Of a stretch of DNA of 46,196 nucleotides, positions 65 to 40,429 are shown in pieces. Position 1 is the stretch's first letter, and every line of letters starts with the position of its first letter. The stretch covers positions 1 to 46,196 of the forward strand of contig CAJGCD010000002.1 in NCBI GenBank assembly GCA_904501715.1, in the 5' to 3' direction. The position numbers were made by a program, and so were the translations under genes. This DNA is from an uncultured Clostridia bacterium (lineage in GTDB: Bacteria; Bacillota; Clostridia; Oscillospirales; CAG-272). The notes below the pieces were generated by a model. It searched no databases and was not told where the DNA came from. It saw nothing but the letters and a program-made list of their open reading frames with translations.

Positions 65-268
65 TCAAACATCCTTAACGTACACCAATATATCCTCTAC
101 CCTGCAATCCAAATAGGTACACAAATCGTTCAAGGTCACAGTTGTTATAGGCTTATTATGCTTCAATCTATCAAGCAGACTTCTGCTGATATTAAAATCG
201 TTAATAAGCTTATAGGTGGTTATGCCTTTTTTCTTCAGGGTGTTATACAGCGGTTCATAGGAAATCAT
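65..268 (-). CDS. small XRE/Cro-C1 family HTH transcriptional regulator (YozG-like), 67 aa
   Basis: ORF 65..298 trimmed to the ATG at 268, which has a GGGAGGG SD (rc of 275-281) 6 nt upstream. The HTH core is ITTYKLINDFNISRSLLDRLKHNK. The C-terminal LNDLCTYLDCRVEDILVYV is typical of short YozG-type regulators. Confidence 0.8.
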   Translation of the reverse strand: MISYEPLYNTLKKKGITTYKLINDFNISRSLLDRLKHNKPITTVTLNDLCTYLDCRVEDILVYVKDV

Positions 269-324
269 ATTTAGCCCTCCCTTTTCTATCTTCGACAATT
301 TATATTATATTTATTATCTTTTTC

Positions 325-353
325 TTGACAATTGTCGATATATAGAGTATAAT
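325..353 (+). promoter_or_regulatory. sigma-A promoter with overlapping operator palindrome
   Basis: TTGACA (325-330), 17-nt spacer, TATAAT (348-353). The perfect palindrome GACAATTGTC (327-336) overlaps the -35. A third CGACAATT half-site lies at 293-300. Confidence 0.7.
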
Positions 354-391
354 AGAAGTGCCCTGAGAAAAATCAGAAGGAGAAGCATCTC

Positions 392-769
392 ATGAAGAAA
401 AAAGAAGTATCCGAATTAATGAAAAAATTTTATCTCTTTGGCTGCGGAGGCTTTGCAGTCGGTGCAGTACTTGCTGTAATTATGATATTTATAAACTCTA
501 TGTTAATGCCCATATTTTTAATGTTCGGCATGGCACCTGTGCTTGTTACATTTTTTACATTTTATACCAAGGCTAAAAAAATGGAAGCAAATGCTTGTAT
601 AAAATGCCCTTCGCCAAAGCAAACCGTTATAAGTGAGGATATACGCCTCCCCGATGAAACTATCGATGGTGTGCTTTGCGAGGTTCATCAGGTAACGCAC
701 ACCTGTCAGGATTGCGGTACTGAATACATCTGTACCGAATATAAGCGACTTAAGAAATCCAACAACTAA
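392..769 (+). CDS. hypothetical membrane protein with C-terminal zinc-ribbon-like Cys pairs
   Basis: AGGAG SD lies upstream. There are two hydrophobic helices (aa ~14-65), then CIKC...CQDC Cys pairs. It is divergent from the XRE gene. Confidence 0.6.
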   Translation: MKKKEVSELMKKFYLFGCGGFAVGAVLAVIMIFINSMLMPIFLMFGMAPVLVTFFTFYTKAKKMEANACIKCPSPKQTVISEDIRLPDETIDGVLCEVHQVTHTCQDCGTEYICTEYKRLKKSNN

Positions 770-796
770 AACATATCTCAGGGCAAAAATAATAAT

Positions 797-826
797 CCAC
801 CCGCATATGCGGGTGGTATTCCATTT
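797..826 (+). terminator. rho-independent terminator (weak T tract)
   Basis: Stem CCACCCGC (797-804), loop atat, stem GCGGGTGG (809-816), followed by tattccatttt. Confidence 0.5.
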
Positions 827-895
827 TGGGCATGGCCCTAATAAATTGTTACTTGCCACCCGTAAACGGGTTTACGTTAAATTCTATTATACATT

Positions 896-1062
896 GTAGG
901 GACAGGCGTCCCCGACTGTCCGCTTTAGCATAAATTCAATTTTTGCTCACACGGAAGCACCAAGGCACTCCCCTACCTATCTTAAAATGATGTTCAGCCA
1001 CTTTCCGTGAGTTTCGGCTTTACTTATCGTTTTTTCGGACAGTCGAGGACGCCTGTCCCTAC
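896..1062. repeat. REPIN/MITE-like element: two inverted GTAG-headed hairpin repeats flanking 113 bp
   Basis: GTAGGGACAGGCGTCCCCGACTGTCCG (896-922) and its inverted copy at 1036-1062 differ at 1 of 27 positions. Each copy folds as GGACAG-loop-CTGTCC. Confidence 0.75.
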
Positions 1063-1157
1063 AAACACTTTTCTTTGTTTTATTCTTAACCCTTTATTCT
1101 TTTTATTCTCATCGGTTAACATGTTTTGAACCCCGCCATCGCGTGGTTTTCGTTATA

Positions 1158-1197
1158 CAAAAACCCGCATCGGAAATTTTCCGATGCGGGTTTGTTT
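1158..1197. terminator. bidirectional rho-independent terminator (ends ldhA)
   Basis: AAACCCGCATCGGAAA (1161-1176) pairs with TTTCCGATGCGGGTTT (1178-1193). It directly abuts the ldhA stop at 1196-1198. Confidence 0.8.
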
Positions 1198-2191
1198 AAT
1201 CTATCAATATCTCATTGTCACATTTTCCGTTTTTGACTATATCCACGATGTTTTTGACCGTGGTCTCGGCAATATTCTCAAGCGCCTCCTCGGTAAGGAA
1301 AGCCTGATGGGAGCTTACTATGACGTTTGGCATAGATATGAGCCTTGCCAAGGTGTCATCCTCAAGTATATGCCCCGAAAAGTCCTCGAAGAAGAACTCG
1401 CTCTCCTCCTCGTAAACGTCAAGGCAGGCGGCTCCCACCTTTCTCGATTTTATCCCCGTCAAAAGCGCCTCGGCATCCACCAGCGCGCCTCGCGAGGTGT
1501 TAAGAATGACCACCCCTCGCTTGCATTTTTCAAGGGATGCTCCGTCGATTATGTGGTAAGTCTCCTCGGTAAGCGGGCAGTGGAGAGATATGATATCACT
1601 CTTTCTGAAAAGCTCGTCAAGCTCCACGTATCTTACAGTGTCGCCGTTGTCCAGCCCCTCTGCTCTGTACTTATCGTAAGCCAGAACCCTCATGCCAAAG
1701 CCGCGGCAGATATCTATAAACACTCTGCCTATACGTCCCGTACCTATAACTCCCACGGTTTTTCCGTGAAGGTCAAAGCCTGTCATTCCCGAAAGGCTGA
1801 AATTGAAATCTCGGGTACGGATATAAGCCTTGTGGATACGGCGAATTGAGGTGAGAAGCATCGCCATGGTATGCTCCGCCACGGCGTATGGCGAATACGC
1901 GGGAACTCTCAAAAGCCGCACCCTGCCCTTAGCATGCTTTAAGTCAACGTTATTAAAGCCCGCGCACCTGAGAGCAACTATGCTTATGCCCATCTCATTC
2001 AATCGGTCTATCACGGCGGCGTTCACAGTGTCATTGACAAATACGCACACCCCGTCAAAGCCGCCCGCCAGGTCAACGGTATCCTCGTTGAGCTTAGTCT
2101 CAAAATATTTGAATTCCACCCCGCTCACGCCACCGAATTTTTCAAAGGATGGCTTGTCGTAGGGCTTTGTATCAAAAAAAGCTATCTTCAT
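1196..2191 (-). CDS. ldhA: D-lactate dehydrogenase (D-isomer-specific 2-hydroxyacid dehydrogenase), 331 aa
   Basis: Start trimmed to the ATG at 2191 with a GGAGGAAG SD. It looks colinear with E. coli LdhA as recalled from memory: ALRCAGFNNVDL, RVPAYSPYAVAEH, GKTVGVIGTGRIG, SLHCPLT, NTSRGALVD, DVYEEE..FFFED, SSHQAFLTEEAL. Confidence 0.9.
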   Translation of the reverse strand: MKIAFFDTKPYDKPSFEKFGGVSGVEFKYFETKLNEDTVDLAGGFDGVCVFVNDTVNAAVIDRLNEMGISIVALRCAGFNNVDLKHAKGRVRLLRVPAYSPYAVAEHTMAMLLTSIRRIHKAYIRTRDFNFSLSGMTGFDLHGKTVGVIGTGRIGRVFIDICRGFGMRVLAYDKYRAEGLDNGDTVRYVELDELFRKSDIISLHCPLTEETYHIIDGASLEKCKRGVVILNTSRGALVDAEALLTGIKSRKVGAACLDVYEEESEFFFEDFSGHILEDDTLARLISMPNVIVSSHQAFLTEEALENIAETTVKNIVDIVKNGKCDNEILID

Positions 2192-2307
2192 TCTTCCTCC
2201 AATAATATATTTCCTTAATGATAATCTTTCCAATTTTTCGTGTTTTTTTCGTCACGGTCAAATATTTATAAAGAAAAAGCTGTCAACTCAGAACAGCTTT
2301 TCTTTTT

Positions 2308-3243
2308 TTACAGACTTACCAATACTATAGCGACAACTACCACCACAAGTCCTACTATCTTTTTGACAGTGACCCTATCCTTAAATACTATAACGTCCAA
2401 AAGGAACGTACCCACTACGGTAAGTCCTCTGGAAAGCGGATAGTAAATGGCTGACGGAAGCTGAGCCGCGTATGAGGTAAACAGCTCTGCTACGTAAAGA
2501 GAAACCGCCGCTATCAGTATATATGCCCATACCTTCTTGTAGGGATACTCGACCTTGGCAGCGCTGCCATCCGACACGGACGCCGAGACGCGCTTGCTTT
2601 CTGTTTTACGGTAAACGGCGAAAAGCATCAAAAACACCGCAAGCACCGTTACGAAATTTATAAAGGTAAAATATTCGATAGTACCAAGTCCCCTCTGGGA
2701 AATATGGTAAGTATAATACTTCTTAAATATGGAAGCCACGGTGATGCTGAGAGCGCACACCGATATTATTACTACCTTCAAGGCAAGGCTTCCCTTATGC
2801 TTTGCTTCCTTTTCCTTGCTCATAAAAAGGAATACGGAAATGAATATCAGCGCACAGCCTATCCATTGCAGAGGCGAAACGCTGTCTCCGTCGTAAAGGA
2901 ACGGAGCGAGTATCAGCGGGATCACAAGAGAGCCTATCATACTAACGCTCTCTATGAGCGTAAGAGGTACAAGCCTTGAGGAAAGTATCCATGTGAAAAG
3001 ATTGAACGCCGTACCTACTGCCGAGATTATTATGATGATATGTCCGAAAAGCGTGGTAGTGCTTCCGTCGGTCACGAGCCAGATAATAAGACTGACCAAA
3101 AGACATATAAGCGAGCGCATCAGGTTTATACAAACGCTGTTAAACGCGCCGGGCGCGAGCCCTCCGCACCTTTTCATAGCAAATTGCTTTCCGCAGATCC
3201 CTAACTGAGCCAGAAGCAAAGCTCCATAAAACAGTATATCCAT
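2308..3243 (-). CDS. DMT-superfamily (EamA-like) 10-TM transporter
   Basis: 311 aa and uniformly hydrophobic, with about 10 predicted helices arranged as two 5-TM halves. The substrate is unknown. Confidence 0.6.
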   Translation of the reverse strand: MDILFYGALLLAQLGICGKQFAMKRCGGLAPGAFNSVCINLMRSLICLLVSLIIWLVTDGSTTTLFGHIIIIISAVGTAFNLFTWILSSRLVPLTLIESVSMIGSLVIPLILAPFLYDGDSVSPLQWIGCALIFISVFLFMSKEKEAKHKGSLALKVVIISVCALSITVASIFKKYYTYHISQRGLGTIEYFTFINFVTVLAVFLMLFAVYRKTESKRVSASVSDGSAAKVEYPYKKVWAYILIAAVSLYVAELFTSYAAQLPSAIYYPLSRGLTVVGTFLLDVIVFKDRVTVKKIVGLVVVVVAIVLVSL

Positions 3244-3275
3244 AAAAAGTACGAAACCTTCTTAAACAGCCCTTA

Positions 3276-4091
3276 TTATTCGTGATATCCTCTCTCGCGA
3301 AGCAGCTGAAGAACTACGTCGGGATTATTACAGGTAATAAGCGTTGCCTTGTTTGCGATAGCCATATCCACGCCCTCGGCATCCTTAACGCAAGCGCCTG
3401 CCCAAGGCTGAGGTCCGCACTTTGCCATAGCTGCAAACTCCTCGGGAGTCGCCATATTAAGTTTGCAGGCAAAGGAGCCCTTGAACATACAGGTGCAATA
3501 TCCGTAGGAATAGGGGTCAAGAGTCTGCTCTCCGCCCATTACGTGGCTGGGATAGTAAACGTGCTGGCGGTACTTTTTACCGTGCTTCTTGTATATGTAT
3601 TCGTTAAGAGGATTAGAGAAAGAATTAAGAACTACTCTGTCGGCATATCCGTACTCGTCCACCATAGCCAGAACTCTGTCGCATACGTCATAGGCTATGA
3701 CCTCGTTGCCGGGGGTGTTGGGGTACTCCTTAAGCTCTATGTCAAGAGTGAGAGTGGGATGGTCCTTAACAAGGTCCATAAACTCCTTGAAGGTGGGTAT
3801 CTTCGTTCCCTTGAATTCCTCTCCCTTATATGAGCCCGCGTCAAGCTCAAGAAGCTGTGCAAGAGTCTTTTCATTCACCTTGCCCGTTCCGTCCGTAGTG
3901 CGGTCAACGGTAGCGTCGTGTATGATGACCAGCTCGTTGTCTGCTGTCACTCTCACGTCTATCTCCACCTGATCAACGCCAAGCTCTATTGCCTTTTCAA
4001 AGGCGATCATAGTATTCTCGGGATATTTTGCACACCATCCTCTGTGTGCCGCAACGTAGATATTCTTTTCACTTTGCTTCCAGTAATTCAT
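3276..4091 (-). CDS. glycerophosphodiester phosphodiesterase (GDPD family), canonical active site
   Basis: Start trimmed to the ATG at 4091 (GAGGAGAA SD). Motifs seen are AAHRG..YPENT, VEIDVRVTADNELVIIHDATVDRTTDGTG. Confidence 0.85.
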   Translation of the reverse strand: MNYWKQSEKNIYVAAHRGWCAKYPENTMIAFEKAIELGVDQVEIDVRVTADNELVIIHDATVDRTTDGTGKVNEKTLAQLLELDAGSYKGEEFKGTKIPTFKEFMDLVKDHPTLTLDIELKEYPNTPGNEVIAYDVCDRVLAMVDEYGYADRVVLNSFSNPLNEYIYKKHGKKYRQHVYYPSHVMGGEQTLDPYSYGYCTCMFKGSFACKLNMATPEEFAAMAKCGPQPWAGACVKDAEGVDMAIANKATLITCNNPDVVLQLLRERGYHE

Positions 4092-4207
4092 AATATTCTC
4101 CTCGCTCAAATATTTTTTGCGCTTTGTGGCGCTTGTCACATAAAGCGTTTATTGTTTTCGTTAAGTTTATCACAAATGCCCATCACTGTCAAGCGATTGC
4201 GAAAAAA

Positions 4208-4960
4208 TTATCCCAGCATAACGTCGGTAATGAGCATTACGCAAAATCCCACCAGCAGCGCGTAGGTAGCGCCTCGCTGATGCCCGTGCGCATGTGTTTC
4301 GGGTATCATTTCGTCGCTTATGACGTAAAGCATAGTTCCGCCCGCGAAGGCAAGAGCAAAGGGCAGAATAAAGGATGCCACAGTGACGGCAAAATAACCT
4401 ATAAGCGTGCCTACCACCTCAATAAGTCCTGTAAGCATGGCAATAAAGAAGGTCCTCGACGGCTTCACTCCCGCCGCAAGCATGGGCGAGATTATCACCA
4501 TACCCTCGGGTATATTCTGCAAGGCTATACCGCCCGCTATGACCAAGGCTCCCGCGGTATCACCCGAGCCAAAGCCCACTCCCGCGGCTATACCCTCGGG
4601 AAGATTATGTATTGCTATGGCGCTGACAAAGAGCAGCACCTTGCTAAGATTTGCGTTGGAGTGGCTCTCCGACTCCTGACCCGCCAGCCTATGAAGATGC
4701 GGTACAAGCTTGTCTATAAGATTAAGGCACAGCGCTCCCGCGAATATTCCTGCCACCGTCATAAAAATACCGTAGCTTCTTCCGTTCTCCAAGGAGGGCA
4801 CAATAAGCCCAAGCACAGCCGCCGCCAGCATAACCCCCGCCGCAAAGGATAGAACTATGTCAGAAAAGCTATGGGATATTTTTTTGAAAGCAAAGCCGAT
4901 TACGGCACCTATAACGGTAGCTCCGCCTACTCCCAAGGCGGTCAGCAGCACAAGCTCCAT
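4208..4960 (-). CDS. ZIP family metal (zinc) transporter, ZupT/GufA-like
   Basis: 250 aa polytopic protein carrying HNLPEGIA and LQNIPEGM motifs. Confidence 0.85.
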   Translation of the reverse strand: MELVLLTALGVGGATVIGAVIGFAFKKISHSFSDIVLSFAAGVMLAAAVLGLIVPSLENGRSYGIFMTVAGIFAGALCLNLIDKLVPHLHRLAGQESESHSNANLSKVLLFVSAIAIHNLPEGIAAGVGFGSGDTAGALVIAGGIALQNIPEGMVIISPMLAAGVKPSRTFFIAMLTGLIEVVGTLIGYFAVTVASFILPFALAFAGGTMLYVISDEMIPETHAHGHQRGATYALLVGFCVMLITDVMLG

Positions 4961-14416: not shown

Positions 14417-14784
14417 GGGTCCGTAAAGGTTTCGACGGGGATTTTGAGGTATGATAAGCGGGTAGAGCCGGGCAATCTCTTAAAAGGCCTAACTTTAAAA
14501 TTAAACGCTAACGATAACGTTGCAATGGCTGCCTAAGGGCAGTGCCGCGGCCTGAGCGCCGCCCGTTCCTCCCGAGAGTATCGCGGCTCGGGACTGAGCG
14601 TCAAGTAAGCGGTGAACGTGCGTCGGTCTTTCGCCATTGAGCCGACCACGCAGAAAATGGCTACCCGAGTGGGAAGTCTGTCTGTTGACGTCCGACAAGG
14701 GGAATTCTAAAAAACAGACTGCACCCGGAGAAGGTCATATCAAGAGGTTTTCGGACAGGGGTTCAATTCCCCTCGGATCCACCA
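14417..14784 (+). ncRNA. ssrA: tmRNA (SsrA), one-piece
   Basis: The 5' GGGTCCG.. pairs with the 3' ..CGGATCC-ACCA, including the G3:U pair. The T-arm is GGGGTTCAATTCCCC. The tag reading frame at 14507-14533 encodes ANDNVAMAA, followed by TAA (14534-14536). Confidence 0.9.
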
Positions 14785-24060: not shown

Positions 24061-24089
24061 ATTATAGCACACATTTGCGGGAATGTAAA
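24061..24089 (-). promoter_or_regulatory. sigma-A promoter of the PHP-AAC(3)-PHP operon
   Basis: On the minus strand: TTTACA (24084-24089), 17-nt spacer, TATAAT (24061-24066). Confidence 0.6.
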
Positions 24090-24155
24090 GAAGAATTTGC
24101 ATTTGGCACCAGTGGACACGCCTGCGGCGAGGATTCGCACGCTCTCCGCCTGACC

Positions 24156-24226
24156 GTAGGGGTCGGCGCCTCGACGACCCGAAAAATCCATCGAACAAAC
24201 GGGCTGTCGTGGGCGCCAGCCCCTAC
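24156..24226. repeat. second REPIN-like doublet of GTAG-headed hairpins (20-bp spacer)
   Basis: GTAGGGGTCGGCGCCTCGACGACCC (24156-24180) is the forward copy. The inverted copy at 24201-24226 reads GTAGGGGCTGGCGCCCACGACAGCCC as its reverse complement. Confidence 0.7.
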
Positions 24227-24408
24227 CGAGAACAGCGGCGAATGCGAACCTAATTCCGCTGCGCGGGGCGGGCACTAGGGTACTCGCCGTTGGCGAGGAT
24301 TCTTCGCCGAGCCTCCCGTGAGCGAGCTCCCGTCGGCTTTCGGCTCGAATGCGAACCTAGCTCCACAACGCTTCGCGTTGCGTAGCAACGTTTCGAAGCG
24401 TTAGTGCT

Positions 24409-24453
24409 CCAGCCAAACAACAAAAAAGCCACCCGGTTGGGTGGCTTGTTGTT
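24409..24453 (-). terminator. rho-independent terminator of tRNA-Gln inside a longer palindrome
   Basis: Core stem GCCACCC (24428-34) / GGGTGGC (24439-45), with T6 on the minus strand. The outer 15-bp arms at 24409-23 and 24446-60 extend the palindrome into the tRNA 3' end. Confidence 0.8.
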
Positions 24454-24529
24454 TGGCTGGGGCACTAGGATTCGAACCTAGGTAATGACGGAGTCAGAGT
24501 CCGTTGCCTTACCGCTTGGCGATGCCCCA
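24454..24529 (-). tRNA. tRNA-Gln (anticodon CTG), CCA encoded
   Basis: Manual cloverleaf. The acceptor is TGGGGCA/TGCCCCA, the anticodon loop CTCTGAC, the T-arm CTAGGTTCGAATCCTAG. Confidence 0.9.
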
Positions 24530-24717: not shown

Positions 24718-24794
24718 CTGCCCGTGGCACAGCTGGATAGCGCGTCAGACTCCGACTCTGAAGGTCGAAGGTTCAAATCCTTTCGGGCAGGCCA
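24718..24794 (+). tRNA. tRNA-Arg (anticodon CCG), CCA encoded
   Basis: Manual cloverleaf. The acceptor is CTGCCCG/CGGGCAG, the anticodon stem TCAGA/TCTGA with loop CTCCGAC, the T-arm GAAGGTTCAAATCCTTT. The D stem has one A-C mismatch. Confidence 0.85.
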
Positions 24795-40340: not shown

Positions 40341-40429
40341 GGAGGGATATCGAAGCGGTCATAACGAGGCGGTCTTGAAAACCGTTTGGGTTCACGCCCA
40401 CGTGGGTTCGAATCCCACTCCCTCCGCCA
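40341..40429 (+). tRNA. tRNA-Ser (anticodon TGA), long variable arm, CCA encoded
   Basis: Manual fold. The acceptor is GGAGGGA/TCCCTCC, the anticodon stem GCGGT/ACCGT with loop CTTGAAA, the T-arm GTGGGTTCGAATCCCAC. Confidence 0.9.

Follow-up and report, generated by a model that had tools for sequence, protein, structure and literature searches.

GTAGGG-headed hairpin repeats of an uncultured gut Clostridia bacterium are very probably REPs, with RAYT-type transposases in related genomes

Four hairpins in a 46,196-nucleotide stretch of DNA from an uncultured Clostridia bacterium (the window, meaning throughout the whole stretch that was analysed) are very probably GTAG-tagged REPs, arranged in BIME/REPIN-like inverted doublets and belonging to a GTAGGG-headed superfamily of gut Clostridia. 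This REP/RAYT reading is supported by the enrichment of the motif, by the covariation of its stems and by a RAYT that is tied to the REP in relatives. An initial annotation of this DNA had proposed a REP/REPIN-like repeat served by a RAYT-type Y1 transposase, and in these three respects the proposal stands; the 167-bp MITE unit that it also envisaged does not.

The motif can be written YY-GTAGGG-NNNN-G-CG-loop-CG-A-NNNN-CC-G, and its four copies form two inverted doublets. A search pattern that contained the shared letters only (GTAGGGNNNNGCGN{3,4}CGANNNNCC, that is GTAGGG-N4-GCG-N3-4-CGA-N4-CC) matched the window at 896-921 (+), 1037-1062 (-), 24156-24180 (+) and 24201-24226 (-). There was no fifth match, and 0.00 matches were expected from 100 dinucleotide-preserving shuffles; the four copies and the two inverted doublets of the initial annotation were thus all found again at their positions. 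A hairpin was headed by 4 of the 14 GTAGGG hexamers of the window, compared with 0 of 18 in the reversed sequence, and the density of the motif is low (4 copies in 46 kb). With the limits of the REP unit of approximately 29 nt drawn from the flank logo of related copies, copy A (894-922, + strand), the left arm of doublet 1 with its head outward, consists of TT, the GTAG head, GGACAG-G-CG-TCCC-CG-A-CTGTCC and a final G. Copy B (1036-1064, - strand), the right arm, is the same unit with one loop difference (TCCT instead of TCCC), the single loop change that had been described. In doublet 2 the left arm, copy C (24154-24181, + strand), has the stem GGGTCG/CGACCC and a 3-nt loop, and the right arm, copy D (24200-24228, - strand), has the stem GGGCTG/CAGCCC and lies 20 nt from copy C, heads outward. 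The compensation between these two stems and the GGACAG/CTGTCC stem of doublet 1, also pointed out initially, is borne out in the window copies. Folding gave the same hairpin for all four, in which a 6-bp stem is followed by an unpaired G/A, then by an inner CG:CG pair and a loop of 3-4 nt, and in 4 of 4 the stem begins directly after GTAG. Given their composition, isolated 35-nt folds of the copies are ordinary (z from -0.5 to -2.5), and the structural evidence is therefore one of comparison and not of energy. Rfam matches were limited to tRNA and tmRNA, both for the whole window at the gathering threshold and for the surroundings of doublet 2 at permissive E-values. Three further readings, chance, CRISPR repeats and integron attC sites, were discarded, as the spacing is irregular, there is no array and the consensus is unlike.

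The boundaries and head of the unit were defined from an alignment of 171 related 26-nt copies from other genomes. GTAG is invariant in these copies and is preceded by two pyrimidine-rich positions, with T in 63% and 70%, which mark a conserved start; the dinucleotide at this point is TT in 47%, while CT, CC, TC and AT account for 9-12% each. The conserved end is a G right after the stem (75%), beyond which the flanks are only A+T-rich. The imperfect palindrome of the unit measures 25-27 nt and so falls within the 20-40 nt of the REP definition. Stem pairing was examined on viral contigs with a loose pattern that did not demand pairing of the four free stem positions. Among the 124 matches, 0, 1, 2, 3 or 4 of these positions were complementary in 26, 47, 16, 4 and 31 respectively, a bimodal split that is a chance class plus 31 perfect hairpins. 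The fully complementary four-letter stems were of 10 distinct types. A pre-filter for at least 3 of 4 pairs left 33 distinct sequences, in which 98.9% of cells were paired, 35 cells were altered on both sides and four pairs showed double changes; this level was reached by 0 of 500 shuffles, and slid registers came nowhere near it. The initial annotation had named a failure of the stems to covary as a finding that would count against it, and the stems do covary. The stem mismatch was G/A in 201 copies, a number that the search patterns partly force, and it was kept in 17 of 19 copies ascertained without G/A (as A/A, A/G, T/C or C/A); the remaining two had a G/T wobble and a C/G pair.

The motif was strongly enriched beyond the window, both by word depth and in other genomes, and on this point, which the initial annotation had named as a possible refutation, nothing spoke against it. 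Contigs of four gut metagenomes were compared with positions 300-1700 of the window; in one of these runs, X1, 88% of the words of this region are present, so that it carries the strain of the window. Unique flanks had a word depth of 8.5-9.5 in X1 and of about 0-20 across the four metagenomes. The arms of doublet 1 reached 227-4698 in the four runs, 20-500 times the flank depth, with 0-8 for the interior (958-1004), and other metagenome contigs join the same arms over 23-28 nt of unrelated sequence. Over-representation is thus confined to the arms, which makes the hairpin of approximately 29 nt, and not the 167-bp block, the repeated unit. A scan of species-representative genomes (MAGs) with the exact 26-mer of doublet 1, leaving two loop positions free, located it in at least 120 stretches; counted by accession prefix, about 90 species-level MAGs are represented. 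Among the matches listed, all hosts are Clostridia from animal or human gut, and they include Oscillospiraceae, Acutalibacteraceae, Ruminococcus sp., Faecousia, Flemingiibacterium, Avispirillum, Ructibacterium and other Clostridia/Eubacteriales.

The 120 stretches among the matches listed provided 763 kb of MAG sequence, at most 8 kb per stretch, in which 238 of 435 GTAGGG hexamers head a hairpin, compared with 2 of 240 in the reversed sequence. For the 120 ascertained loci listed there are 151 REP clusters; the 31 in excess, which were not ascertained, amount to about one per 25 kb. Open stretches of at least 150 codons make up 85% of the bases of these listed matches but contain only 25% of the REP midpoints. 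Pairs within 250 nt, again among the matches listed, were heads-out in 44 cases, heads-in in 22 and direct in 19 (66 inverted versus 19 direct); their spacers range from 2 to 239 nt, and arms also occur singly. The intergenic bias and orientation pairs that the initial annotation had proposed to count are therefore present at the listed MAG loci, where the REPs are mostly intergenic and mostly in inverted pairs, and both window doublets are likewise intergenic and beyond terminators. Five IMG/VR contigs (L098, L114, L037, L070 and L119), with phage-like gene order and 57-65% G+C, carry 6-12 GTAGGG hairpins each, of many stem and loop types, which fill most intergenic gaps and often stand as head-to-head or tail-to-tail pairs. 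Given the many other stem and loop types on viral contigs, the window motif is one family within a GTAGGG-headed superfamily. An orthologous REP doublet was also seen in two MAG species (L237:3066-3136 and L238:776-850); it is approximately 97% identical where the surrounding alignment averages 81%, and in L238 two changes disrupt the head and stem of the second arm.

No inverted repeat of the window is longer than doublet 1, whose 29-nt arms (894-922 and 1036-1064) are 97% complementary. As single-stranded DNA, the 187 nt of the region fold at -41.2 kcal/mol, against -15.2 kcal/mol when shuffled (z = -9.1). The 113-nt spacer (923-1035) contains a third, decayed REP absent from the initial annotation, a GTAGGGG-headed hairpin on the minus strand at about 946-976 with its head at 976. 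The internal inverted segments CACGGAAG and CTTTCCGTG that the annotation did report are present and are paired in the centroid fold. The spacer is partly conserved in four MAG loci (L140, L239, L212 and L231), and relatives of the block occur in unrelated contexts in L140 (76% over 187 nt), L239 and L212, the last with a left arm of a different REP type. In light of the third hairpin and of these relatives, doublet 1 is more aptly called a small BIME-like cluster, made up of three REPs, than a MITE. The resemblance to a MITE that had been suggested is accordingly set aside: the interior is not over-represented, no target-site duplication was seen and the unit is the hairpin of approximately 29 nt. 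The spacer was also considered as a decayed piece of a RAYT gene, but translations read by eye showed no similarity, and a comparison of nucleotides 800-1200 with all loci returned no RAYT locus among the matches listed. On the left, the gap that holds doublet 1 is bounded by a terminator-like hairpin (797-816, + strand) that belongs to an ORF of 125 aa (392-769). The right bound is a terminator-like palindrome (1161-1193, - strand) just past the stop of a 2-hydroxyacid dehydrogenase gene (1196-2191, - strand) that is convergent toward the gap. This palindrome was listed on the plus strand by the scan, and its symmetric stem was taken as serving the minus-strand gene too.

Doublet 2 lies between the terminator (24426-24447) of a tRNA-Gln gene (24454-24529, - strand) and a promoter-like site (24089-24061) of a PHP-family gene, which is strong (11 of 12 matches). 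Both sites are bounded by their own terminators with T-runs and the REPs lie beyond these, so a REP is unneeded as a terminator at either. The tRNA-Gln terminator is formed by a 33-nt inverted repeat, 82% complementary (24402-24467), with one arm that reaches into the 3' end of the tRNA-Gln gene itself. The neighbouring G+C-rich spacer (24080-24400) had no Rfam match. It contains two tandem units that resemble tRNA 3'-end pieces (GGGCACTAGG..GGATTC..CGAA..CGAACCTAG) broken by small hairpins, with direct repeats at 24105-24136/24271-24302 and 24239-24264/24346-24371; the REP doublet sits inside the first unit, and the units may be remnants of old attachment sites. Other RNA genes of the window are a tmRNA gene (14417-14784), ordinary and with the tag ANDNVAMAA, and genes for tRNA-Arg (24718-24794) and tRNA-Ser (40341-40429).

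Comparison with relatives of the two flanking genes yielded no empty site or insertion polymorphism for either, and synteny is lost exactly at both REP sites. Relatives of the dehydrogenase (about 90-96% identity; L240-L246) remain syntenic until right after the terminator, with one contig ending early, and mgtE and metG follow downstream of the dehydrogenase in L240-L245, where this gene is 90-94% identical. On the window side (1-1195) the 125-aa ORF, which is Cys-rich and membrane-associated, and a small HTH gene replace mgtE/metG, and the ENA contig ends there; with respect to L240-L245 there is thus a break of synteny at the REP site. Relatives of the PHP gene (78-84% identity; L247-L251) have upstream regions unrelated to that of the window. 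When the two window proteins at the flanks were looked up exactly, the same proteins occurred only on contigs of the own assembly and on one Logan contig, which starts 150 nt upstream of the PHP gene.

A candidate enzyme for the repeat was found in related genomes. The window itself contains no RAYT gene by tblastn with a RAYT query over its 46 kb, in agreement with the initial annotation. A motif screen of the 120 MAG loci among the matches listed found ORFs with MPNHIHLL and YIYENP, and tblastn identified RAYT homologues in 12 of these 120 REP-ascertained loci: L122 (two genes), L139, L143, L146, L149 (truncated), L165, L177, L185, L191, L204 (partial), L229 and L235. By rough arithmetic, with a single-copy gene of approximately 530 bp and genomes of approximately 3 Mb, about 0.3 such loci would be expected by chance. 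A Y1 transposase gene in relatives, to which the initial annotation had tied its proposal, therefore exists and is physically linked to the same REP in these 12 of the 120 loci listed. A regex screen of 119 viral loci found no HUH/Y ORF. The protein has an HUH motif and a catalytic Tyr in a Y-x3-NP context, and it matches NCBIfam NF047646 ('REP-associated tyrosine transposase', REP_Tyr_transpos) with an E-value of 7e-18 and a score of 64.9 bits, below the curated 80. Pfam Y1_Tnp scored 22.3 against a cut-off of 23 for one RAYT and did not match two others; the REP-coded inserts described below probably lower these family-model scores. The only significant sequence match in the PDB was E. coli TnpAREP, 4ER8 (E 1e-6), in which NIWQpRFwEHaiRN aligns with NIWQaRFnDHivRN of the RAYT. 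The contacts of TnpAREP with GTAG are W94, Q95, E100, H101 and R104 (Quentin et al., PMC6006769), and the aligned RAYT segment covers this region with D in place of E at E100. By fold, too, an AlphaFold (AF2) model of the RAYT (pLDDT 72.7) matches 4ER8 best (E 6e-8, TM 0.52-0.56); IS200/IS605 transposases (ISDra2 and IS608; E 3e-6 to 1e-4) come next, and identity with 4ER8 is only about 26% over the aligned fold. The family is large, with 4632 proteins at E < 1e-10 in a word-indexed search and 17,145 cluster representatives at E < 1e-3 in an exhaustive one; its records are mostly unnamed, 'transposase' or 'hypothetical protein', and one JGI record reads 'REP element-mobilizing transposase RayT'. 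Among the RAYT-like contigs of X1 there is one at a depth of 8.65, near the 8.5-9.5 of the window, a depth that does not on its own link it to the genome of the window.

All complete RAYT genes (10 in 9 loci) contain the REP twice within the ORF, in frame, inverted and with heads outward, and in each the intragenic REP is of the type that belongs to that RAYT paralogue. The first REP lies just after the first strand (beta-1) and is read as VGTGVLDCP, the second, translated as GQSRTPVPT, falls between the HUH and Tyr motifs, and the arms are 139-157 nt apart; the same REP is also found downstream of the RAYT gene in 3 loci. At L122:5009-6622 there are two tandem RAYT paralogues, 37% identical, which carry different REP types at the same two in-frame sites, one the type of the window and the other GTAGGGGCRATTCACGWATYGCCC (read as VGAIHELP and RAIRESPLQ). 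REP type thus follows the RAYT paralogue in this pair (L122a versus L122b). The relationship was extended to 98 aligned representatives (50%-identity clusters from the exhaustive search, 37-70% identical to the query), 55 of which have recognisable REP peptides at both sites; the reverse-complement rule for one REP type is obeyed by the peptide pair in 39 of these 55, against a permutation mean of 12 and maximum of 23 in 2000 trials. The REP-coded residues, 40-44 and 96-107, are the only internal low-confidence parts of the RAYT model. Some RAYT genes contain two to five tandem 27-nt REP units, expansions of two to about eight copies were observed inside RAYT ORFs (L165:586-644; P0283, P0502 and P0437), and the second site of the L143 RAYT has a short repeat of TRTMTR type. 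In L149 (2176-2418), compared with L139 (7280-7804), the RAYT is cut off exactly after the first internal REP while the upstream 2.1 kb is collinear, which suggests a rearrangement at the REP. The embedded doublet brackets the HUH-coding segment, and both of its arms change together with REP type. It is possible, if rather doubtful at present, that this doublet is functional and not merely tolerated, as a self-recognition module or a master copy. Self-recognition would mean that the enzyme binds or cuts its own gene or transcript and so limits its own dose, while a master copy would keep enzyme specificity and repeat sequence locked over long times. A functional doublet would explain the presence of an identical 26-mer in about 90 species despite protein identities of 53-89%.

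We propose a mechanism for these repeats by homology with the TnpAREP proteins of E. coli, Stenotrophomonas and Marinomonas (PMC8266576; 4ER8). TnpAREP binds the folded REP strand and not its complement, depends on GTAG and, for the E. coli enzyme, also on the bulge in the stem (PMC8266576). Cleavage, on either the 5' or the 3' side of the hairpin, falls at a CT or CA dinucleotide and passes through a tyrosine-DNA link, and the strands can be rejoined (PMC8266576). By analogy, the Clostridia RAYT would bind the folded REP on single-stranded DNA, read the GTAG foot and the mismatched stem, and use its tyrosine to cut at a nearby pyrimidine dinucleotide before rejoining the strands. REPs or REP doublets may thereby be copied or moved into intergenic gaps, and the two sites of the window would be insertions of this kind, in tail DNA or DNA that is not transcribed: doublet 1 is flanked by convergent terminators, doublet 2 by the terminator of a tRNA gene and the promoter that follows. 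This scheme, which is drawn from the tested enzymes, agrees with the conserved mismatch and with the pyrimidine pair that precedes GTAG. Against it is that the 5' dinucleotide is mostly TT (47%), in contrast to the CT that those enzymes cut.

Another possibility is that the hairpins are structural signals of the host, such as terminators, stabilisers of mRNA 3' ends or protein-binding sites, which are kept by host selection and are not mobilised. The REPs do lie downstream of genes and between convergent genes, E. coli REPs are described as having such secondary roles (PMC6006769), and the orthologous doublet of L237 and L238 is better conserved than its flanks. However, both window sites already have T-run terminators with the REPs beyond them, the REPs themselves lack a T-run, and terminators would not be expected to show an invariant GTAG head, physical linkage to RAYT genes or one identical 26-mer across about 90 species. 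We therefore regard host signalling as unlikely to be the explanation; a host role could coexist with mobility, and it is only as the sole explanation that it fails.

Mobility could also be of a different kind from that of REPs. The shared architecture of a hairpin with a 5' guide, together with the weaker matches of the RAYT model to the TnpA proteins of ISDra2 and IS608 (E 3e-6 to 1e-4), would fit ends that IS200/IS605-type elements have left behind (remnants of tnpA/tnpB units, like PATEs) instead of REPs served by a domesticated RAYT. This is very improbable, as the linked proteins match the REP-associated family and 4ER8 best, their Y-x3-NP signature is that of class 2 according to Quentin et al. 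(PMC6006769), and left and right ends are identical in sequence where a distinct LE and RE would be expected; no tnpB was noticed next to the hairpins. It is still harder to believe that doublet 1 is a classical MITE, a deleted insertion sequence of DDE type that moves as a 167-bp unit, even though its 29-nt terminal inverted repeats, its length of 167 bp and its very stable fold (z = -9.1) are what such an element would show and relatives of the complete block, with its interior, occur in other MAGs in different contexts (L140, 76% over 187 nt). It is the arms that are over-represented in metagenomes and not the interior, and these arms occur singly, head-to-head or in direct orientation with spacers of 2 to 239 nt. 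Beyond the YY and the G, the 171 related copies have no conserved flank or target duplication; moreover, each arm is itself a GTAG-footed hairpin, and the linked gene is of the HUH/Y1 and not of the DDE type. REPs mobilised by a RAYT are thus the explanation that we favour for both doublets.

Work on REP/RAYT systems has dealt almost exclusively with Proteobacteria. A survey of GTAG repeats reported hosts among Proteobacteria, Cyanobacteria, Chloroflexi and the PVC group and no Firmicutes (PMC3733652), and the RAYT survey mentioned Clostridia only for group 1 (PMC5581495), which equals subclass 2.1, beside whose genes no REPs were found (PMC6006769). RepRanger lists three Bacillota genomes and makes no mention of the GTAGGG motif, and a targeted literature search for REP-associated tyrosine transposases in Clostridia returned nothing further. 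The kind of system is therefore a known one, in a host group, Clostridia, that we did not find in the REP/RAYT surveys consulted. The concept of REPs is left unchanged, but the host range of REP/RAYT is extended to uncultured gut Clostridia, with a large and diverse superfamily and its cognate RAYTs. GTAGGG-REPs explain a common source of contig breaks in assemblies of gut metagenomes and, we infer, may underlie some spurious 'hypothetical proteins'. They also offer a natural series of matched enzyme-repeat pairs with which the reading of hairpins by HUH enzymes can be studied.

The nearest sequence and fold match among known systems is REP/BIME with RayT of E. coli (TnpAREP, 4ER8; group 2 of Bertels, subclass 2.2 of Quentin). 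The repeats share a 5' GTAG foot, an imperfect palindrome, a conserved stem mismatch and alternating extragenic clusters, and the proteins share the HUH/Y1 type and the WQ..(E/D)H..R segment. They differ from E. coli in the Clostridia host, in a foot extended to GTAGGG, in a mismatch that is a single purine-purine pair, in a 5' dinucleotide that is mostly TT and not CT, in the presence of the REP inside the transposase ORF and in a protein identity of approximately 26%. REPs inside tnpAREP genes are the mark of subclass 2.4, or group 4 of Bertels (Quentin et al. [quoted passage not shown] As compared by description, intragenic REPs and a G-C rich stem foot are common to this subclass and the Clostridia system; no long C-terminal extension was seen in the Clostridia RAYTs in this comparison, and, unlike subclass 2.4, every complete Clostridia RAYT seen has two fixed sites that form an inverted doublet. 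The D at the position of E. coli E100 is a change reported for subclasses 2.5 and 2.7 (PMC6006769). The fixed in-frame doublet is possibly a variant of the REP/RAYT arrangement.

With the REPINs of P. fluorescens (Bertels and Rainey; group 3), whose RAYT is single-copy in Pseudomonas, the Clostridia repeats have in common two inverted REPs that form one long hairpin and are tied to a RAYT. They are unlike REPINs in that the single REP, and not the doublet with its spacer, is over-represented in the community of the window, and in that spacers vary widely. The ends of IS200/IS605 elements such as IS608 and ISDra2 likewise combine a subterminal hairpin, a 5' guide tetranucleotide and an HUH/Y1 enzyme that acts on single-stranded DNA; the Clostridia repeats differ from these in having no distinct left and right ends, and in a protein that groups with the REP-associated class.
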